This document shows positions 1,129-37,303 of a stretch of DNA of 64,000 bases, piece after piece. The stretch comes from Picochlorum sp. SENEW3 (lineage: Eukaryota): contig CP120456.1 in the NCBI GenBank assembly GCA_034226945.1, positions 496,001 through 560,000 of the forward strand, in the 5' to 3' direction. The notes below the pieces were generated by a model that saw only the letters and a list, made by a program, of their open reading frames with translations, did no database searches and was not told the origin of the DNA. A program made the position numbers and the translations under genes. The first letter of the stretch is position 1; the number at the start of each line of letters is the position of its first letter.

Positions 1129-1365
1129 ATCCCGTAAAATCTGTGTAACCAATGAGCCCATTCAACAGCCATGTATTCTGAATTGATATAGTACATTGTA
1201 TTTGATGCAGTAGAAATCGAAACCTAAAACAGTAGTCGTAGTCGTCGTTGAACCGAGTCCTTATTGGACGACTGTGGTGCTCCCAAGGGTCTCGAGCATA
1301 TTTCAGTAGGTATAATAAACAACAATATGCAAGATAGTATTGACCTTTCTGTAGATAAACGAAGT

Positions 1366-4300
1366 ATGAGGATGGTGGCATGGGTTGTGGTGGTGCTATC
1401 CATGGTTGAGGTTGCCACAGGGTACAGTACCAACCCTAGTGTCAACTCTTGGCGACAGGCTACGATTTACGAAATTATGACGGATCGATTCAATAATCCA
1501 TCAGGAGAGATCTCATGTGCAAATCCGAATCAGTATTGTGGCGGGACGTTCAAAGGTATACAGGACAAGATTGATTACTTGAAAAAATTGAATATGCGGT
1601 CTGTATGGATTACGCCGCAGTTTACAAATACTCCGGAAGGGTACCATGGGTACTGGCCATTGAATCTGTTTCAAGTGAATCCGAATTTCGGAATGCATCA
1701 GGATATGCAGAACTTGTTGGATAGTCTGAATTCAGGAGGCTTGTTCAGCATGCTTGATGTTGTGTTGAATCACATGGGATATGGGAGTGCATATCCTTCG
1801 TTTAATTACTATTTCAACCCATTCAATCAAGAGAGTCAATTTCATTCGTGCGATGGGTGCCTTCCTGATTGCTCTGTACCTAGTTCGGTTCCTGCAGATC
1901 CGAATAATGGGAGTCTTTCCTTTTGGCCACTCATGTGGAAATGTAGGCTGGCTCAGTTGCCTGATATCAATCATACAGCTGATGGAGTTGTTGCGGATTA
2001 TTTGAATTGGTTGGATTATATAAAAAGCGAGTTTTCTTTTGATGGTTTCCGATATGATGCTATTCCTTACATTGAACCAGAGTTTTTGACGACGTTTGCT
2101 CGGAATGGACAAGTATTTGGGCTTGGTGAGATCCTAATGCCTGGCGTTCCTGAAGGCCAATACAGATTGAGCGAGATGTACATGAAATATGGGACGACCA
2201 TGATATCTGATCGTCCAGATAATCCCGCTGGTTCGTACTCTCAGCTAGATCAGATGCAAGCATTTGCACTGAGACAGTGCTATGGAGGGGAGATTGTTAT
2301 TCCAGGGGCTGGGTGTCGTTTTTTGTCATATGTGAGAGGAAATTATTCTGCCTTGGGGTTGGATCAGAAGCTTATGGGTCGATATCTTGATTCAGCGGAT
2401 TTGCCTCGATTTTTGACGATTTATAATAATACAGTCAACCTGCAAAGTGCATTGGCGGTGTTGTTTCTCGGTGAGGGGATTCCAATCATTTGGCAAGGGA
2501 CAGAGCAAGGGATGGGGGCTGAGCCAAGTGAGTATGAAAATGGTAGAGATCCCATGTGGATCGTGAGTGATTTTGGAACTGGTGGGGAGTTGTTCGTGTA
2601 TATCAGAATGCTGAACTATTACCGGAACAGCTTGAATCTGTTTGATGAAGATTTGAAGGAATTGTGGGTGGATGAAACTACATATGGGTTCATGATGGGC
2701 CCGGTGTTTGCAATCTTGCCTAATGGAAATGCAACCGTGGAGAATTATGAAATCAGTGGCCTTACAATGAATAAAGAGTATTGCCAGCTTGCTGTGGTAC
2801 CTGATGCAGACACAATGTGTTTGACCACTGATGATCAAGGCCGTGCTACCATTCGTGGTTATTCGTACGGAGAGCCGCAGTTGCCATTGATTTTTGTGTA
2901 CTCAGAGCATGCAAAGCGTTACCAGGTCTTTCTTCCGTACGAGTACTGGTCGATTTTGTGGGTAGAGGGTTTGCTTGTTTCGTTATTGCTGCTTCCGGTT
3001 GCATGGGTAATTGGCCGCTTGTTTGTCCGGTATTATCCGCACAGAGGGAAACTTTGGTGGGAATTAAGGACCGAGACTTTTTTGAAGCATCTGAATATTT
3101 TCAAGTCAAAGGTATACAAGAATATGATTAGTGTTCAGGGCATGGTTGAAATGTTTGATCCGAGTGTGGAGCAGATGTCTGCAAAGCAGCAGAGTGCAGA
3201 ATTGGACAAGAATGCAACGCTTTCAAAATCTACAACTCAAGAAATTATTCACAGTAAACTAGAGCAGCATCAGGAGCCGGGATTTTTAGCATCGCTCAAT
3301 CGCCTGGGTGGGTCTAAATTGATTGCAAAGTATTCAAAGGCCTTCCTGCATGATCCAACTTTGGTCTGGCATCTTGCTCTAGAATATAGCATACCTCATC
3401 TTGGATTGCACAATAATCTAAAATTTGGAGGCTTGGGACAGGTTGTGGGTATGTTTGCAGAGTTTACAACAAAGCCACTGGTTGTCTGTGCACCAATGTA
3501 TTCTCCTTTTTATGATGAGGATGGAAATCTGAAACACGATGTCCTGGGTGCACCTGGAGAATTTGTTACAAGGTTACCCATTAGAATGGAGGGTGGTGAG
3601 GATGCTGCTGTTAATGTGTACATAGCAGCGCCTGATGTGGACGAGCCTACTGTTTTCTACATCCTCCTAGACTGTTACGAAATCTTTGGTTGGAGAACAA
3701 AAGGGGAGATTTATACATTTGGCTCAGAGGCAGATCAATTACGATATTTTGCTGTATATGGTCAATGTCTTGCAGCTTTGATTGGTATGTTCGATGTCAG
3801 ATGTGTGCAGTTGCATGATAATCATGCTGGAATATTTTTGGAGTACATCAAGCCATCTCTCAGACCTACTGCCCTCATAACGCTCCATAATGCTGACTAT
3901 AATACAAAGTTTCCTCTAGGAACCAAGGAGAGAAATAAGTACGTGTATTCGTGCCTTGGTTTGAGTAGCATGGACCAGACAACACGAGATGAATGTGAGC
4001 ATCTTGGGAACTTTGATTTTCTCTACTTGCTTGTCAAACATGTCACACAATACCAGGGAGGCCATGGATTTGTAGCCGTGTCGCCGAGATATGCAGAGCG
4101 TTGCTACATCAAGTTTTCGAGATTTTGGCCAATACACTCGGAAAAAATGATTGGAGTACTCAATGGCTTCAAGGATGGAGATAGAGTCTTTCAGAAACCT
4201 GACAACATGGATTCATTGTTTGACGCCAAGAAATTTGCAAAAGAAAACCTTCAAAAAAGACTCGATCTGGAAGTGGATGATGATAAGAAGGTTATGGCAT

Positions 4301-6216
4301 TTTTTGGACGCGTGACATATCAAAAAGGCTGCGATCTTGTTGCAAAAGCCACGCCACAGATTTTGAAAATGCACTCCAATGCTCAAATCATCATAGCAGG
4401 TCCTATAGGTGATTCAAATGGAGTGCAAACAGAAGATATGATGGCAAAATTGGAGACTGAATTTCCGGGTAGAGTAGCCAACCTTGTTGGTCAGTATGTT
4501 TCAGGAAAAGAGAAGGAGGAACTCATCCTTGCAACTGACTTTTTCTTCTGTCCATCGCGCTTTGAACCATGTGGACTTGCAGACATAGAGATGGGCCATG
4601 CCGGAGCAATTCAGATAGGCCATAATACAGGAGGTTTGAATAAGATGCCAGGATTCTATTTTGAGGCAGAACTGGACAGTGACCAGACTCTGGTTCATCA
4701 GCTTGAACAAGCTTGTCTTGAGGCACTATCACAGCCTAACCAAGTGCTTCGAGATTTAGCTGAGAAGGCTATCAACAAATCCTTCCCTCCTGAAATCATG
4801 GTCACAGCGTATGATGAAGAATGGAAGAAATTGAACACGAGTCGCAAAGTTTCTAATGCAGTCTTCAAGAGATCCCTCAGCTTTGATTATGAGCAGAACA
4901 CGGATGAGATGAAATTTTATGGTGAATGGTGGTCTTTGGAGAATTCAACTGCAGTTGAGAATGCTCCAGAGCCATCATGGAATGTTGTCAGGGCATTTTG
5001 GGCAAACATTCTTCTCATAATTTGCCAGTCTCTTTACAGGTTTCCTTCTCTATTGTGCTTGATCTGGATCCAGTTTGCCGTACCTGCTGGCCAATCAACG
5101 CTTTTGATCACCAATGACCGTAACGAAATGCCAGTGTTTGTTGATTTGTTCTTAATACAATTGGGCATCACGTTTTTCGCTGCGCCAATATGGCAAATGA
5201 TTGCCAGTTGCATGAGTCCCAGGCGGTACATTATTCTTGCCTCTTGGCTAAATATTCTTTCCTGGTATTGCTCACTTTGGTCATTTTGGGCACCAGCAGC
5301 CATGAATGTTTTGTTCATCATCTCTTCAGTCCTTGGCACTAGCCCAGTACCGTTCATAGGCTTTATCAATTTGGATGTGGAGAGCAAGGTTTCGATAGCC
5401 TCCCAGGGGGTCAAGCTGATGGCTCTTTCCGATTGCTTCTGGTATTTAATGCTTGTTGTGGTATATTCTCGACAGGCCGCCGGGGTATATCTTCACAGAA
5501 GTACACTAATTATAATTGGATGCATACTTTTAGTCGCATCCGTGTGGCTGACTGAGTTTTTTAGGCATCCCAGGACTCTGCCACCTCATTTTTCTTTCAA
5601 GAGGCTCCGCTATTTTGGGCAATTCACTGTACTCCTAAAGCAAAGAAAGACATGGTTGTATTTCTCACTACTAACATTTTTTGATTCATACATATTCACA
5701 GTATTGCTAGGATCTATCTTGGAATACTTGGGAGACAACACTGATTATGTCAGAGGAGCGTATATGGGTTTAGTTGGCACAACAGCTTTGTATTCTGTTG
5801 TAGCCGCGATCCTGATTTCGTCTCGCTTTGGAGGTACATTGAGCATCAAACTGTACTACATTATCCTGATAGGTCCCTGTATGGGTCTCATGCAGGCAGC
5901 TCTCATTGTGTATTGCCCAGATTGGGCAGCCATTGTGGCAGCAACTGTCATTAATGTTCTCTCGGTGCGTTATTCCATTAAAGGACTCCTCAGTTTGCAC
6001 ACGATGCCCTCGAGAGAAATATTTTTATCTGTCACGACCTTGCAAGTGATGGTGGGCTCGATAGCTGTAACAGTGGGGGCTATTACAAATTGGAAGCTAC
6101 AGTATAACGAACAATGGCTATGGATGACAGTGATAGCGATTGCTGAGGGTTTGAGGCTGTTGACGTGTATTCCTTTCATACGGTGTCACGCCAAGGAGAA
6201 CCTGGCGAGACCATAG
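1366..6216 (+). CDS. Alpha-1,3-glucan synthase-like protein (signal peptide, GH13 domain, TM, GT5 domain, multi-pass TM region)
   Basis: Signal peptide MRMVAWVVVVLSMVEVATG. GH13 motifs IYEIMTDRF, GYHGYW, DVVLNH, DGFRYD. TM segment WSILWVEGLLVSLLLLPVAWVIG. GT5 motifs KFGGLGQV, HNA, GRVTYQKG, PSRFEPCGL, GGLNKMPG. About 400 aa hydrophobic C-terminus. Intronless. ATG 1366 preferred; ATG 1327 is also in frame. Confidence 0.85.
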   Translation: MRMVAWVVVVLSMVEVATGYSTNPSVNSWRQATIYEIMTDRFNNPSGEISCANPNQYCGGTFKGIQDKIDYLKKLNMRSVWITPQFTNTPEGYHGYWPLNLFQVNPNFGMHQDMQNLLDSLNSGGLFSMLDVVLNHMGYGSAYPSFNYYFNPFNQESQFHSCDGCLPDCSVPSSVPADPNNGSLSFWPLMWKCRLAQLPDINHTADGVVADYLNWLDYIKSEFSFDGFRYDAIPYIEPEFLTTFARNGQVFGLGEILMPGVPEGQYRLSEMYMKYGTTMISDRPDNPAGSYSQLDQMQAFALRQCYGGEIVIPGAGCRFLSYVRGNYSALGLDQKLMGRYLDSADLPRFLTIYNNTVNLQSALAVLFLGEGIPIIWQGTEQGMGAEPSEYENGRDPMWIVSDFGTGGELFVYIRMLNYYRNSLNLFDEDLKELWVDETTYGFMMGPVFAILPNGNATVENYEISGLTMNKEYCQLAVVPDADTMCLTTDDQGRATIRGYSYGEPQLPLIFVYSEHAKRYQVFLPYEYWSILWVEGLLVSLLLLPVAWVIGRLFVRYYPHRGKLWWELRTETFLKHLNIFKSKVYKNMISVQGMVEMFDPSVEQMSAKQQSAELDKNATLSKSTTQEIIHSKLEQHQEPGFLASLNRLGGSKLIAKYSKAFLHDPTLVWHLALEYSIPHLGLHNNLKFGGLGQVVGMFAEFTTKPLVVCAPMYSPFYDEDGNLKHDVLGAPGEFVTRLPIRMEGGEDAAVNVYIAAPDVDEPTVFYILLDCYEIFGWRTKGEIYTFGSEADQLRYFAVYGQCLAALIGMFDVRCVQLHDNHAGIFLEYIKPSLRPTALITLHNADYNTKFPLGTKERNKYVYSCLGLSSMDQTTRDECEHLGNFDFLYLLVKHVTQYQGGHGFVAVSPRYAERCYIKFSRFWPIHSEKMIGVLNGFKDGDRVFQKPDNMDSLFDAKKFAKENLQKRLDLEVDDDKKVMAFFGRVTYQKGCDLVAKATPQILKMHSNAQIIIAGPIGDSNGVQTEDMMAKLETEFPGRVANLVGQYVSGKEKEELILATDFFFCPSRFEPCGLADIEMGHAGAIQIGHNTGGLNKMPGFYFEAELDSDQTLVHQLEQACLEALSQPNQVLRDLAEKAINKSFPPEIMVTAYDEEWKKLNTSRKVSNAVFKRSLSFDYEQNTDEMKFYGEWWSLENSTAVENAPEPSWNVVRAFWANILLIICQSLYRFPSLLCLIWIQFAVPAGQSTLLITNDRNEMPVFVDLFLIQLGITFFAAPIWQMIASCMSPRRYIILASWLNILSWYCSLWSFWAPAAMNVLFIISSVLGTSPVPFIGFINLDVESKVSIASQGVKLMALSDCFWYLMLVVVYSRQAAGVYLHRSTLIIIGCILLVASVWLTEFFRHPRTLPPHFSFKRLRYFGQFTVLLKQRKTWLYFSLLTFFDSYIFTVLLGSILEYLGDNTDYVRGAYMGLVGTTALYSVVAAILISSRFGGTLSIKLYYIILIGPCMGLMQAALIVYCPDWAAIVAATVINVLSVRYSIKGLLSLHTMPSREIFLSVTTLQVMVGSIAVTVGAITNWKLQYNEQWLWMTVIAIAEGLRLLTCIPFIRCHAKENLARP

Positions 6217-6294
6217 TCTGATTTCTACTACATATTGCTATTACATATTTCATGTCTACAACGAACAAATAAAAGAGCAAAGAGTTCTATGGTA

Positions 6295-7716
6295 CTATTC
6301 ATGGGCTGAAGAAATCTTCCACCCTGGGGAACCCCCTGGACCAAGGCATAATCTGTATTTTGCCTCCTCGGGTGACCATGCAATTTTTGCTTTTAATGCC
6401 AATGACGACTCTTGCTTCTTGGGAATATCCTTAGCAGACTTTTGGGCCAGTGGTACCAAAGACCCAATGATTTCTCTCAATTCCCTGACTTGCTCCTCAA
6501 GCGCATCTGCTCTCCGTTCTGCACGCTGAGCATCCTGCATATAGGCAGTCAGAAGCGCGACAAAATTGCCTTGATCACCAGCAATATTTTCTTTACCGTC
6601 GCTCTCATCCACATCAATTGGGAAAGAAGAAATGCAGGAAGTTGACCTTTGCTGTCTGATCCTATCTCCAATGGACATCCTCTCAGGCTCCTGCTGAGCA
6701 CGTTTGGCAGCCTTTGTTATACGATCAGACATCTCGGCTTGCTCATCGTACATAAGACCCATGGCTTTATGGAGAGAACGGTATCCATCACTCAGAGTAT
6801 GAACTGCAGCTTTCACTCGAGCATCAGATGATCGTGCTGCCACAGTAGCAGGCGAGGAGGATCCAGAAACATATGGAGTGCCATATCGCATCTCCTTTCG
6901 AAGCTCAGCCACTTCTTCACGGGCAATCTGAGCAGTTTTCAATGCATCATCTGCCTTCTCCTCGGCAACAATTGATGCAGCCTTGGCAGACTCTTTCAAA
7001 TCCTCAACTCTCTGGGATATTTGCTCAATCTTCTTTCTCGAATCCTCTGTATATCTTTCAATTCCAACATCAAGATCATCCATTCTCAATCGCAACGATT
7101 CAACTGTTTCACACTCTTCAAAATCCTCAAGTGACTGCTCCACCACCTCAAGAGCCAAGTTGATCAATTCAATCTTGGAGGACAGATCTTCTACATTCTC
7201 CTGTACAGCATCGACTGTCCCGACAACCCTATCCATATCATGTTCAACTTTCTCAACATGTTGTAGGGCTGCGTCAGCCTTCACCTCCACATCCTGTACA
7301 AGAGACACAGTTGATTCGAATGTTTCATGATCAACCAAGTGCCTTTCGACCTCTCTCAAACGCTCGTCAAACAATCCAAGCTGGCCCCGAACATCCTCTT
7401 TTGCTTTAACTTCTTCAAGCTCACACATACATGATTCCAACTGACCAGACAGCTCCTCAATCACGTTCTTGCCCCCTTGTGGACCAAGCTGCACTTTGAG
7501 TTCCTCAATGTCTTCATCCAACGTCTGCAACATGTTCGCCGTCTCTTTGGACGCAGCATCCATGTGATGACGCCATGTCACCAAGCCAGTCGTAGAATCC
7601 TTGAGTAGACTGATTTCGGTGGATGTTAGCGCAGCCTGAGCTTCCAATGACGACAGGCGAGGCAGAATATTAGGGTCCTCAGTCGAATCCCGCCCAAGGC
7701 GCTCGTCATAATTCAT
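6295..7716 (-). CDS. Uncharacterised coiled-coil protein
   Basis: Long ORF rich in E/L/D/K heptads. Start chosen at ATG 7716 (MNYDERL); the ORF is open to 7998. Confidence 0.7.
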   Translation of the reverse strand: MNYDERLGRDSTEDPNILPRLSSLEAQAALTSTEISLLKDSTTGLVTWRHHMDAASKETANMLQTLDEDIEELKVQLGPQGGKNVIEELSGQLESCMCELEEVKAKEDVRGQLGLFDERLREVERHLVDHETFESTVSLVQDVEVKADAALQHVEKVEHDMDRVVGTVDAVQENVEDLSSKIELINLALEVVEQSLEDFEECETVESLRLRMDDLDVGIERYTEDSRKKIEQISQRVEDLKESAKAASIVAEEKADDALKTAQIAREEVAELRKEMRYGTPYVSGSSSPATVAARSSDARVKAAVHTLSDGYRSLHKAMGLMYDEQAEMSDRITKAAKRAQQEPERMSIGDRIRQQRSTSCISSFPIDVDESDGKENIAGDQGNFVALLTAYMQDAQRAERRADALEEQVRELREIIGSLVPLAQKSAKDIPKKQESSLALKAKIAWSPEEAKYRLCLGPGGSPGWKISSAHE

Positions 7717-8223
7717 TGGACTTGGAGGTGAGTTGATTTGTGGGCTCAAAATATTGTTATACACCCGCACTGCGAGGAATCGAATTTCAAAATCGGTCAG
7801 GTCACGAATCCCAATAAAGCCAGGTCTGAGTACCCAGCGCCCTGAAATTGAACATTTTCGTGATAATAAAACGTACCGGTATCTTGTTTTGCCTTTGGGT
7901 TCGAAGGCATTGTTGTTTGAAATGAGCAGCCTCCGAGGCAATCTGGAGAAGGTTGCTTGGACTCCGTTTTGGGGTGTGTTTCTGGTCAAAATATACACTT
8001 TTTATTGAATATGTATATTTCCATACCATTTGGGAGAGTTATATGCTTTATTTAGACTTTGATGAAACCCGGGTGGCAAAGATTCCACGGAATGAGGCGC
8101 CTTCAAGGAATGCCCTTGAATTTCAAATGCAAGGAGCCAATGGCGCAGTTGGCTGCTTCAACAATAGGTTTGCAATCTCATCAGGGACATGTGCACCCTT
8201 TATTCATCTATATGTGTCAGCTA

Positions 8224-11200
8224 TCATGGTGGTGGTAATGGTACAGTTGCGTATGGAGATGGAGATGCTAAGGATGGAGTATTGGAAGGGCATGTTCCCC
8301 ATTGTGGTTGGATGCACGTATCATTCTCAAACGCTGCCCCAAGGTCAAATCTCTCAGGCTTGCTCGCTATCTTTGTCACGCACCAGTTTGAGATGTCTTG
8401 ATTGAATAGAGTGGCGTCGTCAAACATGGAGTCCATGCTCGTCACAAGTCCAGTATCCCACTTTGAGCCAGATCTGGCTAATGGCTGGTTCCCATTGTTG
8501 AACTGAAAAGCGCTGAAAAACATTCGATCCATCGTCGTTACTGAAGACGTGTCCCAAGAACTTATGTCCTGATCAAATGAGGTGGCGTAGCCAAACATCA
8601 ACCCCATATCAGTCACTGCAGATGTGTCCCATACCCCAATCGGCTGATTGAAGGCAAACGCTGCTGCAAACATCCCGGAGGTATCATTGACTGATGACAT
8701 GACCCAGCTGGAAATATCCTGATTGAAGGAGTCGGCAAAAAAAAACATGCCTGACATGCTTTTCACATTTGCTGTGTTCCAAGAGCTTAGATCGCCATTG
8801 AAAGCACTTGGTGGACTAAATGTACCAGAGAACATTCCCGCCATCGAAGTCACTTGCAATGTATCCCATCCATTCAGGTCCTGATTGAACGCAAGAGCTC
8901 TGCTGAACATGCTTGACATATCCTTCACTGATCCAGTTTGCCATGAACTGATGTCTCTGTTGAATACAAGAGCCTCTTGAAACATGCCACTCATGTCTTC
9001 AACTGCAGCTGTGTTCCATGTATTGATAGGTTGATCAAAGGCTTCTGCTTCTTTAAGCATTTTTTTCATTGACGTTACTTTGCTTGTATCCCATACGGGT
9101 CCAGATGTGGCCAGAGGTTTGTTGAAGACAGAAGCCCCTTCAAGCATGCTACCCATATCAGTGACTTTGCTTGTATCGAATCTGATTTCCTGATTGAAAG
9201 CTTTTGCATTGTTGAACATGTACTTCATATTTGTCACAGAACCAGTATTCCATCCAGATGTGGATGTTGCAAGCGGCTGGCCACCATTATTGAACACTGC
9301 TGCTTCTCCAAACATTTCACGCATTGATATTACTGAACTTGTATCCCATGACCCGATGTCCTGGTCGAACGATTCTGCTCCGAAGAACATGCCGGCCATG
9401 TTTTGTACTTGACTGGTGTTCCAGTTTCCAACCGGCACATTGAAGGCAGATGCAACACCAAACATGTCAAACATGGTTGTTACAGAGGATGTGTCCCAAC
9501 TTGATCCAACTGTTTCCATGGGTTGTCCACCATTATTAAACGCATACGCTTCGTAGAACATGGTGTTCATGTTTTGTACCGATGCTGTATTCCACTTGCT
9601 GATGTCCTGGTTAAAAGAAGCTGCCCCTACAAACATCTCCTCCATGGTTGTCACAGAAGCAGTATTCCATTCACCGATGGGTTGGTTGAAATCACTGACA
9701 AACTGAGGCGCATCTCCCAAGTATCCTTGAAACATTCCCTTCATTGTTGTGACCGATCCTGTGTCCCATGTAGCAATATTTTCATTGAAGGTCTCGAGAT
9801 CAGCAAAGAGATTAGACATGTCAGTTATTCCAGATGTGCAAGTTGTTGGTAGTTGACTCCACGTTGTAGAATCTGCTACCAAAGCTCTCAGTTGACTTTC
9901 GGATCGTTTTGTGTACAAGATCCCACCGACCCAACCAGAAGAACCGATGGGTGCTCGAGGGCAGAGGACAGTCACTTGGTTGGGACCTAGATAGAAAACT
10001 GGTGCAGGAACTGGAACTGGAATTGGCTGAGGAGATGGCTGAGGAGAAGGAAGTGGAGATATTTGTGGCAGTGGCTGGGGAGAAGGCTGAGGAGAAGGTT
10101 CAGGCTCTGGGGCAGGCTCTGGGGCATCTGGTACAGGTATTGGTTTGGAAGTCTCGAGCACGTCCTCCACCAAAACATTCTCTCCAAGAACCTGTGACGT
10201 TGACTCTCCTGGTCCCGTGAGAAAGTCTGTCAACGTATTTGCCGCCAAATTCGCACTGTCAAGTTGATTAGTGTCATCAACAGCAAAAACTACTTGCAAA
10301 AAAGCTCTAATTGTAGGATTGACTCCTCCCTGCCTGTTGACGACAGGAATTACCCTGGCAACTGTACAAGACGTCAGAGAAGGATCATATCCTGAAATCA
10401 TCACCAGGTCCTTACAAAGCTGCTCCCTCTTTTCCTGGCCAAACGACTGAACTGTTTCATTGGCAATACCAAGCCTGACCTCCACCTCAGGGACCTCCAC
10501 CAGAGTTGAATTCGGAGGAACCAAGTCGTATCGTCTCAAAAACTTCCATCTAGTCGCCGTATTGATAGTGGGAAAGTATCCACCTTCGCCCTCCACCAGC
10601 ACAGGTTGACTCTGACAGTTTTTCACTGCCAAAACATGACGACAGATTTCTGGTTTGTTTGCTGCAGTCACCTCAAAAGTAGAAGTACTGCTGTCGCCTC
10701 CATCCTTGACCTTCCACATTTGGGGACTATCCACACCAGCAACCTGTGAGGAGTTCAGAAACAAATCACCAGCATATGATGAAACAAGACACGTGCCCTT
10801 GTATGACGGGTTCTCATAAAAGTTGCTGATAAACCCAAGACAACGCGTGTATTCTGCATAGTCGGGAGGAATAAAAGCTTGCAATGAAATTCTCTTCTCA
10901 TTGTCACCGTCCTCCACCCTCAACAACCATTCACGCCACATCATGGAAGCACTCTGACCTGTCCTCATCACTGGACCAGCAGTTTTTGCCATTGATACCG
11001 CCTCCGAGCAACTTCGATTGTTAAACCCCAGAAACTCTGCGGCATAATGATATACCAATCTTTCAGTGATACAGAAACAACAACCATTGCCACCAATGCA
11101 CGCAGGACGCACCTCGACCAAGGTCACATTCGGGCCTGACCGAGGCCAACTCAATCGAGTACACTCCGTCACGGACATCTCGTAACGAGTCCACCCGGCT

Positions 11201-19568: not shown

Positions 19569-21014
19569 ATGACGCTCATTGGCGGTAGTTATGAACGATT
19601 TTTATTCGGATATAGCCATCCAGCATCGTTACGGGGGCAGGTGCGAATATTGTCTGGCTTGTCATGTCTCTATTCTTTTACTGTCTGATACCTTACTTGC
19701 ATACACCTGGTGTAGGAAGCGTGTGAATTAAAGAGTGACTTTACACATGCTGCTCATAAAGGTGTTGTAAAATCTTTGGCGGCAGCAGGGCCTTTTCTTG
19801 CTTCTGGTGGGGCTGATGATTTAATTCATCTCTATGATTTGAGGCACAAAAAGGACCTGGGCTTTCTGATGAATCCTGCAGAGGGTTCGATCACTGCTCT
19901 TTCTTTTTTCACACCAGAGCATGCTTTCAAGCCGACACACTTACTGGCGGGCTGTACAGATGGTACCCTGACAGTATGGACTGCTGGCCATGGGTGGCAA
20001 TGCATGAAAACGCTTCGCGGGCACCGCAATGAAATAACATCTATTACTATTCATAAGACAGGATTGTTAGCACTGACTACATCACGTGATAAGACGATGC
20101 GCTTGTGGGACCTGGTCAAGGGAAGGACTACATTTCATTCCAAATTAGAGGAGGAGGCAGAGCAAATCTCATTTTCTCCCTCCGGACAAAAGTATGGCAT
20201 TCGAGCAGGGTCAAAGATTACTATTTTCCCAGTAGACTCTAACCCCGAAGTACCTAATAAAGGGGCAATTTCATTGGTACATCCCAGAAAAGTTACCAGC
20301 TTTTGCTTTGGAAACAGTGACTCTGCTGTTATTTCTGGCTCTGAGGATGGAACAGTGCGTGCGTGGCAAGCCACAGAAAATCAACCGCCATGTATCATTG
20401 TTCAACTTGAGAAATGTCATTCGAGTAGAATAAAGGCACTATCCATTCCAAAATCATATACAGTGGACAAGGATTCACAACCTACACCCGAGTCTACATA
20501 TATGGGAGGAGAGTTCCCTGCGTTTGTTGCCACTGCGTCGAGCGACGGATTGATTTGTATTTGGAAACTTCAGAAAGCTATAGAGGAAGCGATAGATAGG
20601 AAATCGCCCATTCAGCCCGCAGAGGATTTTCAGTTATCTTCTGTTGATACAAGGGCTCGATTGACTACACTGGTAGCGATGGATTCGGTGGATATGATGG
20701 AGCTGCTGGCGATTGAAATGTCTAATATATCCAAGCGGCGAAAGAATACTGCAAAAAAGCATCGCGTCAGCGCCTCACAAGGGGATGAGAAACCCAGAAA
20801 GAAGGAGAAACATGTGCAGAAAAGAGTCGAGACACCCCACTCTGAGGGCGTCACGAAGCTCAGAGACGATGGATCTAAAGTTGTTTCGTTTATAGATGAG
20901 AGAGATAGAGAGCGAGATGCAAAGAAGAAGAAGAAGGTAGAGATCCAGGCAAAGAGAATGAAGAGCCAGCAGAAAAAGACATCCAAGAAAAAGATGAAGA
21001 AATCAATGACATAG
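19569..21014 (+). CDS. PAK1IP1: PAK1IP1/MAK11-like WD40 60S biogenesis factor (2 exons)
   Basis: Exon 1 MTLIGGSYERFLFG, intron 19641-19715. LASGGADDLIHLYD, WD repeats and a Lys-rich tail. Confidence 0.85.
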
Positions 21015-34829: not shown

Positions 34830-37303
34830 TCATAGCTTTGAATAAAGCCATTGTATGATAGTCTTGAAGGCATCGTTTGTCACGTTGGGTCCATAGTCAG
34901 AGAATGAGTTCTGGAAGTTGTAAATATATCTGCTCCAAATTTTCTGGATGTTATTCTGCATTCTTTCGATATCTTCCTTGCTAACGGCTAATAGAATATC
35001 AGGAAGCTTGGACATGTCTTGAAAAGAGACTCTTAAACTAAACTCCTCAATGCGCAACACAGTCTCAAAGTCTCCCAGGACATCGTCAATAATGATGACA
35101 GGTATGCACCCATGCATTACACTATCTTCAAATCTAGTTGTAAACCCTTCTCCCATCAACACAGGACAGAATATCGATCGATTCAAAAGCTCAGAGTACG
35201 TCAGAGTGATGTTCGGTGGATTACTTTCTCCAATATATATCTTGTACTTCTCCCACCAGCTTTCCTCTTTGCAGAGCTTGGTCAGATTTTGCCTCGATCC
35301 TCTCGAATACTTTGGAAGCCAATCCAACGTTCTTCCTTTGTGAGATGCGAGAAAATCTCTCTGCACTGGTGGTGAGTTCGAAACGAAAGGCGATCCAGCA
35401 AACTTGCCCTTGAAAAACATCTGTGGAATCACCAAATCCTTCTCTGGATCCACGCATTTTTCATATCCAATGAGGTTTCTCATACCCTTTGGTTGATAAA
35501 TTTTATCTTTTGCCTTTGTGTCAAACATATCCGGGCCATAACTTGTGAAACTGTGATTATTATATCCAGTATAGCCCCAGTGGGTCAGGATAATGGCATT
35601 TCTGAGGACTTTGGGCACCCAGCAACTACCTTCGTCATGAGGAGCCAGCTGCGCCAGAGAAAGTAATTTATGTATGCACGAGTCACAAAGAAAAATGACG
35701 ATATAATTTCAACGCACCAATATGTGATCTCTGCCGTTCTTCCTATCCCAGTAGGGATACATTCTTCGAATCCAGTGCTGGGCTTCATACATCATTGATG
35801 CTGCCATATACACACGAGCTGAGGCTCGAGGAGTATGATACGATGGAAAGTCATCGAAATTAGCCACAGGAAACTGCAAGCACGCCGTATACATTGGAAT
35901 ATAAAAGAAATCGGCTTCCTCTGGGTCTAGGGTTCTGTGGGGACTTTGCAAAAAGAGCTCATGCAATCCAGTTTCAGAGCAATATACATGGCCTTGGGGC
36001 ACAGATACGTTTGATGCGTCAAACGTCCGATGAACACATGACCCTGCATCAATCCTGTACTGTAGTATGGTTTGATCAAAAATTGGATCCATGTTGTACA
36101 CATATATAAGTGGACGCAGTCTTTTCCCACCAGATGGCAATTCGCTCCCTGGTATCCTTGCAAAATCTCGAATCCAAGGATCTATTTCTGTATCATCTGT
36201 TGATTTTATATACATCCCAGGTACCTTGTGTGCACAATCATGCCCATACCATCCTGCATCACATTTGCAAAACCCACTGATGCAGATCCCATGGCCTCCA
36301 CATTGATTAATGCAGAAGCTCTCTCTATTGAATTGACAAAATTCTCCAGCCAGTCCATCTGCAACGCAGGGGCATTTAAATTCTGGCGTATCAGCTTCGC
36401 ACCACCCATGAGGCCCAAGCAATTGCTCATATGTAGGCCGATCCTTGCTAGCAGGTGCAATGTTACCATGACTATCATTCCTTGGCTGACAATGCAAAGA
36501 AAGCTGACGCCCAGATTTTATTGGTGGTGTTCCAGGGATGGAACCAACAGGTGCCGGCACCCTTCCATACTTTGTGTGAGTTGGACAATAGCAGGTGCCA
36601 GTATCCCTATCACAATACCCAGCACATGCCCCACTGGTGCCATATCCAAGTGATATATTGAAAGGCTCATCATAAGGCTCAAACGACCCTGGTGTTCCAT
36701 ACCGTTGACTGCATGGCCTATTACGCCGAACGTCACACGCTGGACCACTCCAACCAGCAGGACACCGACAAACCCCAGTAGAATAGTCACACACCTGCAG
36801 AGACAGAAAAAGAGAAACAATTCTACGCGTCAGATCACTCCATGTACTTCCTGAATTGAAAAAAAGGTTATAAAAAGCAGTGCCCCTACCCCAACATGAT
36901 TACAATTCCATAGACATTCTTTCATCGGTTTCCCTTCTGTGTAACCCTTTTCTGCATTTGCAAATGGATCCTTCCACCTCATGGGCGTTTGTGCCTTCCA
37001 TGCCTTACACCACGTCCCTCGCGTCAAGTAACACTCTTCATCTTGATGCGACTTGCCAAACGGGTTGCTCAGAGAAACTCGTGGATAAAGACCCTTGATC
37101 AGTAAGGATGGGTTATGAGAGAGCACAAGCGTCCCGACCCCAAGATGGAGACCACCGTACAATAGCACTACTGATACCAGAATAAGTACTAAAAATAGAA
37201 TACATGTACTATTTAAAATACCCAATCTTTTCAGGCTATCATACGGGGAAATCCCATTCCCGGTACTCTGGTCGACCCGTCCCCCCTGTGCAGAAGCACA
37301 CAT
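34830..37303 (-). CDS. GT47 exostosin-family glycosyltransferase with EGF-like Cys-rich domains (3 exons)
   Basis: Introns 36889-36795 and 35717-35649 keep the frame. EGF motifs CRCPAGWSG and CKCDAGWYG. GT47 motifs RPLIYVY, RTLDPEEADFFYIP, GRDHI, SIFCP, GCIPVII. Confidence 0.88.

Follow-up and report, generated by a model that had tools for sequence, protein, structure and literature searches.

A compact Ags-like protein combining an amylase-type GH13 domain, a GT5 synthase domain and an MFS-fold domain in Picochlorum and other green algae

The window analyzed here, a 64,000-nucleotide stretch of contig CP120456.1 (positions 496,001 to 560,000) from the green alga Picochlorum sp. SENEW3, contains near its start a single intronless open reading frame of 1629 residues, in which a signal peptide, a GH13 domain, a single transmembrane (TM) helix, a GT5 domain and a multi-TM domain follow one another (Table 1). 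Translation from its second methionine, the start adopted in a preliminary description of this locus, would yield a product of 1616 residues. The layout reported in that description was recovered with Pfam, hydropathy, AlphaFold2 and RNA contigs. A hydropathy scan picked out a signal-like stretch at residues 16-34, the TM helix at 549-567 and 10 more segments within 1228-1618, and the signal region aligns with that of a Taka-type amylase precursor. The gene is present in a single copy in the 13.85-Mb genome: the remaining nine of its ten matches there comprise six weak GT5 loci and three weak GH13 loci. The neighboring genes are ordinary eukaryotic ones, and the codon-position GC of the gene resembles theirs.

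Table 1. Organization of the gene and its predicted product (positions in the window; residues numbered on the 1629-residue frame)
Feature	Residues	Position	Strand	Remarks
Whole open reading frame	1-1629	1327..6216	+	open frame, single copy, without splice joint
Probable signal peptide	14-33	1366..1425	+	hydropathy; A-T-G precedes the predicted cleavage site
GH13 alpha-amylase-type domain	34 to about 530	1426..2916	+	predicted extracellular
Single TM helix	549-567	2971..3027	+	hydropathy; position kept in homologues
Linker	568-677	3028..3357	+	alignment; poorly conserved, predicted cytosolic
Ags-type GT5 (GT-B) synthase domain	678-1172	3358..4842	+	
12-TM MFS-fold domain	1218-1629	4978..6213	+	ends in E-N-L-x-R-P

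No splice joint was found inside the frame in any of the four sequencing runs compared. Runs X3 and X4, which come from one study of a related strain, behave as RNA, showing spliced joints at 7769-7877 and 19638-19714 as well as adapter ends; X1 and X6 probably represent DNA, and X7 and X8 (share 0.05) were set aside. In X3, where neighboring genes are spliced, two contigs (1332-2457 and 2428-6568) span the frame. As the RNA contigs extend into a convergent neighbor, they are in themselves no proof of one transcript, and the case for a single-gene fusion additionally draws on the open frame and on the conservation of the fusion in other algae. The closest relative, from Picochlorum sp. BPE23, is 99% identical over residues 675-1629. 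Taken together, the feature is real: one transcribed frame encoding a signal peptide and GH13, TM, GT5 and MFS-fold regions.

Several other genes of the window were noted in passing. The convergent neighbor is a 473-residue frame (6295-7716, minus strand) without a Pfam match, with its stop 79 bases from that of the synthase gene; the RNA contigs cross the 3' ends of both, and the spliced intron at 7769-7877 lies upstream of this frame. The gene at 8224-11178 (minus strand) encodes a 984-residue protein with a long array of DUF285 repeats (PF03382, E 2e-149) after a proline-rich linker; a joint between 8997 and 9482 is seen in all four runs compared, and hence this stretch seems to be variable between strains or copies. 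A nucleotide-diphospho-sugar transferase (PF03407; 32447-34081, plus strand) and an exostosin of family GT47 (34830-35528, minus strand) are possible wall glycosyltransferases.

The synthase domain is detected by Pfam PF00534 (glycosyltransferase C-lobe, E 4e-13) and, over residues 698-1166, by the NCBIfam model TIGR02095 (glgA, E 2e-33, under its cut-off). The predicted catalytic residues D831, H854, R995, K1000 and E1080 are invariant in all nine rows of alignment A1. When Schizosaccharomyces pombe Mok11 was searched against the Picochlorum genome, it recovered this gene with E 1.4e-46 and the best starch synthase with 1.4e-9. The domain contains the motifs LEY..P, GGLG and GGL.KMPG.Y, which are common to Ags and absent from starch synthases; LEY..P, HD(N/Y)H, Q.G.G..(A/G)VS..Y, (I/V)E.G and GGL..(M/V/L)PG likewise occur in the algal, fungal and dinoflagellate rows and not in the starch synthases. 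Thus, the motifs singled out in the preliminary description as Ags-like hold up, except for the lysine of K.GGLG, which is found in only two of the nine algal rows covering that site, the others having M, R or Q. In pairwise comparisons the domain is 25-27% identical to six fungal Ags rows and 20-24% to the alga's own starch synthases. The Mok11 search, the GT5 tree discussed below and the comparison of the TM domains all support the kinship with Ags/Mok that had been proposed, and on sequence grounds we regard this GT5 domain as homologous to that of the fungal proteins.

An AlphaFold2 model of residues 675-1629 based on a 63-sequence alignment (pLDDT 89, pTM 0.86) replaced a poor earlier fold from a 4-sequence alignment (pLDDT 49). 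It displays a GT-B domain matching E. coli glycogen synthase (Z 31.7, rmsd 3.0, 433 aligned). About 12 TM helices come after it and adopt an MFS fold, for which VMAT2 (Z 29.1, rmsd 3.4, 370 aligned) and many further MFS chains (Z 22-28) were retrieved. The TM part also matched MFS clusters of the ESM Atlas with a score of 0.97, and the Picochlorum protein itself gave no Pfam MFS match. Hence, the modeled C-terminal domain has a 12-TM MFS fold, with transport as its predicted activity. A profile-profile alignment (hhalign) of 10 algal against 11 fungal sequences of the TM domain gave a probability of 89% (E 2e-6) over 333 collinear columns running to the C-terminus, as against 0.14% for a reversed control. 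The ends themselves are alike, KENLARP in Picochlorum and RENLSRP in Mok11. At 18% identity the statistical support is modest, and at that level the sequences indicate that the C-terminal domain is homologous to the multi-TM domain of Ags. A protein from Chromosphaera perkinsii (P0023) has an Ags-type GT5 domain joined to a Pfam MFS_1 domain (E 4e-13), and its gene model contains no GH13; it is possibly a minimal form of the system, and the fusion supports an MFS ancestry for the Ags TM domain.

The N-terminal domain matches Pfam PF00128 (alpha-amylase, E 4e-37), its best PDB matches are Taka-type alpha-amylases (E 7e-48), and its database matches show a resemblance to secreted amylases of amoebae, animals and fungi. 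The catalytic triad (D244, E268 and D358) is intact, as in the Taka-type enzymes. However, while Taka-amylases have both active-site histidines, in regions I and IV, the Picochlorum domain keeps only that of region I (His149), its region IV reading S-A-D against the N-H-D of amylases, with Ala357 in place of the histidine. Across 19 algal GH13 sequences, one of them read by eye, region IV is SAD in 11, NGD in one and NHD in seven; thus, 12 lack the histidine, the Picochlorum copy among them, and the complete hydrolase motif is retained in Chlorella ohadii, both Micractinium species and Scenedesmus. The region-I motif, here D.V.NH, is D.T...L in all ten fungal rows. The domain scored 191-247 bits against 10 free eukaryotic amylases, which were picked as top matches and therefore bias the comparison toward themselves, and 19-42 bits against six fungal Ags. 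By these sequence criteria it belongs to the Taka-amylase type and not, as in the fungal proteins, to the Ags type (subfamilies which we take to be GH13_1 and GH13_22, respectively), leaving the label 'alpha-1,3' unproven for the alga. In a careful tree (36 of 62 rows) the domain falls outside the Ags GH13 clade (95/91), and the base is a polytomy. A grouping with free amylases in a quick tree (95 SH-aLRT) dissolved in the careful one. AU tests (p 0.25 and 0.13) did not reject the alternative of one ancient GH13 fusion that the fungi share. The similarity scores nevertheless suggest an independent recruitment of the GH13 domain in chlorophytes.

Unlike Taka-amylases and the GPI-anchored transglycosylases AgtA, AmyD, Aah1 and Aah3, the algal GH13 domain is TM-anchored and fused to a synthase and a transporter. 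Accessible parts of one study report that fungal transglycosylating GH13 enzymes, namely Aah1 and Aah3, lack an active-site histidine, without stating which (PMC12305055). By analogy, the loss of the region-IV histidine probably biases the GH13 domain of the Picochlorum lineage toward transglycosylation.

The distribution of the protein was surveyed with a profile of the GT and TM regions searched against 1.84 billion representative sequences, which gave 5592 matches with E<=1e-3 and 118 with E<=1e-30; relatives were drawn from the best 150 of the 5592, and names were obtained for 30 matches. Among the matches listed, the top block is an algal family with members in Chlorella ohadii, Scenedesmus PABB004, Micractinium tetrahymenae, Myrmecia bisecta, Tetradesmus obliquus, Haematococcus lacustris and M. 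conductrix. Several of the named algal members are partial gene models; the whole layout, signal peptide included, was recognized in Picochlorum, P0003, M. tetrahymenae and Scenedesmus, and the Chlorella ohadii member has the same layout minus the N-terminal part. In M. tetrahymenae, a symbiotic alga, the gene models P0014 and P0162 are nearly identical and their locus tags lie close together, suggesting a recent duplication of the gene. The next tier among the matches listed aligns over GT5 only, and includes fungal Ags (S. pombe Mok11, S. japonicus Mok12 and proteins from Geranomyces, Entophlyctis, Colletotrichum and Phakopsora), dinoflagellate proteins, Chromosphaera perkinsii and Diacronema lutheri. 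A word-index search with the GT+TM region returned no fungal Ags among its 7997 candidates; as the full HMM search did recover them, this blank reflects a limit of sensitivity. With sequence patterns that reach close relatives only, none of 78 matches in viral contigs and four of 44 in prokaryote genomes were confirmed, the latter all weak and partial with 26-29% identity; within that reach no bacterial or viral donor was seen.

Outside the chlorophytes and fungi, proteins of Symbiodinium natans, Polykrikos kofoidii, Amphidinium massartii, C. perkinsii and D. lutheri also have an Ags-type GT5 followed by a multi-TM region; they fall into separate clades, and a GH13 domain is missing from some of these proteins, while in others it is N-terminal or C-terminal. 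In P0030 and P0034, from the dinoflagellate-type clade, it lies C-terminal rather than N-terminal to the TM domain, indicating that the GH13 module has been shuffled. P0028, a Polykrikos kofoidii record, and P0036 share the compact layout with an amylase-type GH13, which seemingly lacks some catalytic residues, having Gln or Asp at the acid/base position and no Asp at the region-IV position. The Polykrikos record is, we assume, from the transcriptome of a predator, and could thus derive from prey. P0024 and P0045, two long Ags-like proteins, belong to neither the fungal nor the chlorophyte clade and retain a C-terminal E-D-x-x-(K/R)-P. Two bacterial-looking GT5 proteins (P0144 and P0147) sit on long branches between the starch synthases and the Ags-like group, and one of them has a long C-terminal part that, read by eye, appears GH13-like.

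The closest described counterparts are the fungal Ags1/Mok11-13 of S. pombe and AgsB of Aspergillus, which have the same order of domains and share with the algal protein the Ags-type GT5 motifs, the homologous TM domain and the C-terminal motif. The algal form is far more compact, with 1629 residues against about 2400, an extracellular part of about 550 against about 1070, and a GT-to-TM linker of about 45 against about 350. It has the build of an Ags and probably works in a similar way: the reading we favor, at somewhat better than even confidence, is that of a plasma-membrane alpha-glucan synthase, exporter and remodeler that belongs to the Ags lineage and has come down vertically within the core chlorophytes. 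Its signal peptide, together with the lone TM helix, would place the GH13 domain outside and the GT5 domain inside the cell; the latter, drawing on a nucleotide-glucose of the cytosol (probably UDP-Glc), would extend a linear alpha-glucan; the MFS-fold domain, to go by its fold and the fungal model, would carry the chain or an oligomer over the membrane; and the outer GH13 domain would cut and re-join alpha-1,4 segments. The layout of a synthase, exporter and remodeler that had been proposed is thereby upheld, and its function is what we infer from it. Accessible parts of the fungal literature describe a comparable sequence of synthesis inside, passage via the multi-TM domain and joining outside (PMC5753165; PMC12305055).

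With respect to the product, the identity of the GT5 domain to Ags is just above that to starch synthases, and a linkage can hence not be carried over. S. pombe Mok14, which we compare by description, is an Ags-family member presumably without the GH13 part. It makes the extracellular alpha-1,4-glucan of the spore wall, according to the portions of the report available (PMC9214231), and in those of another the overexpressed synthase domain of Ags1 yields alpha-1,4-glucan (PMC5753165); the linkage can therefore not be read from sequence. The amylase-type GH13 domain tilts the odds to alpha-1,4, and we consider a wall or surface alpha-glucan containing such links the likelier product, with a fungal-type alpha-1,3 chain a distinctly weaker candidate. 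Searches of the alga's own genome for alpha-1,3-glucanase with GH71 and CatAgl_D2 (PF03659, PF22816) were blank, the controls being equally silent.

Certain observations go against this reading. Proteins with an MFS fold usually carry small solutes, by alternating access, and hence oligosaccharide traffic would fit better than the threading of a polymer; further, the hydrolase-type NHD is retained in the seven algal GH13 domains mentioned above. In addition, the accessible text of a 2024 review of cell walls lists no alpha-glucan in those of trebouxiophytes (PMC12223506). The first two of these are more in keeping with a role in sugar release, wherein short alpha-1,4 chains produced by the GT5 domain would leave through the MFS domain and be hydrolyzed by the GH13 domain to maltose or malto-oligosaccharides, serving as photosynthate overflow or, in symbionts, host feeding. 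The much greater proximity of the GH13 domain to free secreted-type amylases than to Ags, and the complete NHD of the species listed, are consistent with this; M. conductrix has a His-retaining member and, in the available part of one source, excretes maltose (PMC11834939), and that of another calls the mechanism of maltose secretion by Chlorella unclear (PMC6019070). However, the family is also found in Picochlorum, Scenedesmus and Haematococcus, which are not described as symbionts in the sources used, the region-IV histidine is lost in the Picochlorum copy, and a wall polymer is what the fungal homologues build; overall, we view sugar release as the chief alternative, though an improbable one. 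For M. conductrix, a pathway of sugar excretion was reportedly proposed by Arriola et al. (2018), whose paper may already treat this gene. A reverse or internal flow, with the GH13 domain freeing malto-oligosaccharides outside or in the lumen of the vacuole or Golgi, the MFS domain importing them and the GT5 domain extending them as a cytosolic glucan or primer, is unlikelier still. The topology is symmetric as to direction, MFS domains import as well as export, and the GH13 domain is like those of secreted amylases, but the GT5+TM module is homologous to fungal exporters, and green algae keep their starch in the plastid, as stated in the accessible part of a preprint (bioRxiv 10.64898/2026.09.25.754361).

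The favored reading also has a bearing on origin. A quick GT5 tree (87 rows, each covering 400 aa or more of GT5, after removal of five near-duplicates) and a careful one (40 hand-picked rows) agree with each other; in the quick tree the label 'dinoflagellate-type' derives from three named rows of a 29-row clade and 'fungal' from seven among 27. The chlorophyte clade is well supported (100/99), and the fungal Ags are monophyletic (100/100) and group with the dinoflagellate-type clade (100/99); the deepest forks of the trees are weak. The AU test rejects an exclusive clade of chlorophytes and fungi (p 7.7e-5, LG+G4). Within the algal clade of a 29-row tree, the Chlorophyceae (Haematococcus, and Scenedesmus with Tetradesmus) are split from the Trebouxiophyceae, within which Myrmecia, Chlorella with Micractinium, and the Picochlorum group form branches; this follows taxonomy, as expected for vertical descent from a core-chlorophyte ancestor. 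Trees made separately for the two domains, as the preliminary description had advised, thus place the GT5 domain with the Ags-like sequences, apart from the fungal clade, and the GH13 domain outside that of Ags.

That description had raised the possibility of horizontal acquisition, which in its full version would make this a fungal alpha-1,3-glucan synthase taken over from a fungus. The shared domain order with homologous GT5 and TM domains, the patchy eukaryotic distribution, the lack of introns and the AU tests that allow a single ancient GH13 fusion are all compatible with such a transfer. Yet the family is chlorophyte-wide and branches by taxonomy, the fungal Ags are nearer to the dinoflagellate-type sequences, an exclusive chlorophyte-fungal clade is rejected, the GH13 domain is without the Ags signature in region I, about 500 residues of the fungal extracellular region are missing, and the codon-position GC is like that of the neighbors; on balance, we think this version very doubtful. 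Our best reading of the trees is that the algal gene represents an old separate lineage, vertically inherited in core chlorophytes, rather than a member of the fungal family, and a much older transfer between eukaryotes may lie behind it. That it is a plastid starch synthase that has diverged, or that separate genes are read through by chance, is scarcely credible and was ruled out by the trees and the conserved fusion: among solved structures the GT domain is best matched by starch and glycogen synthases, and plastid starch synthases and bacterial GlgA share its GT-B fold and catalytic R, K, E and H, but these are soluble and without TM or GH13 regions, 33 Ags-like rows separate from seven starch/glycogen synthase rows with 100/100 support, as the preliminary description had anticipated, the alga's six other starch-synthase-type loci sit in a separate clade, and the one open frame recurs as the same fusion in several genera, with RNA contigs free of joints.

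In the literature searched, with supplements and most subscription journals outside its scope, we found no description of Ags-like proteins in algae. The accessible parts of five sources (PMC3797821, bioRxiv 10.64898/2026.09.25.754361, PMC6141220, PMC5872309 and PMC11126685) make no mention of the fusion, and those of PMC3797821 treat algal GT5 proteins as starch synthases only. The surmise that genome surveys of Picochlorum had already noted it thus finds no echo in the parts of the genome paper available (PMC6141220); however, annotation pipelines have registered the likeness to Ags in two other algae, with the GenBank auto-labels 'mok12' in Scenedesmus PABB004 and 'alpha-1,3-glucan synthase Ags3, partial' in M. 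conductrix. As far as its accessible text goes, one review confines alpha-1,3-glucans to Dikarya (PMC7389562).

A protein that looks like an enzyme of a kind so far described from fungal walls is thus found in a green alga, and the origin of this antifungal-target family is moved outside the fungi. We tentatively propose, as a conjecture more likely to need revision than not, that synthase-MFS exporters of the Ags type arose early in eukaryotes and are not a fungal invention, and that a compact form, for which a secreted-type amylase was recruited independently, persisted in core chlorophytes; this form would either lay down an undescribed extracellular alpha-glucan (the transferase form of the Picochlorum lineage) or, where the histidine is retained, release maltose from Chlorella and Micractinium symbionts to their hosts. 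From a chlorophyte-wide enzyme of the Ags lineage one would expect industrially grown algae to have an extracellular alpha-glucan that has been overlooked, or else a route of sugar export. The compact, single-copy version offers a model for how a GT5 product might cross an MFS-fold domain, and for asking what sets alpha-1,3 versus alpha-1,4 linkage.
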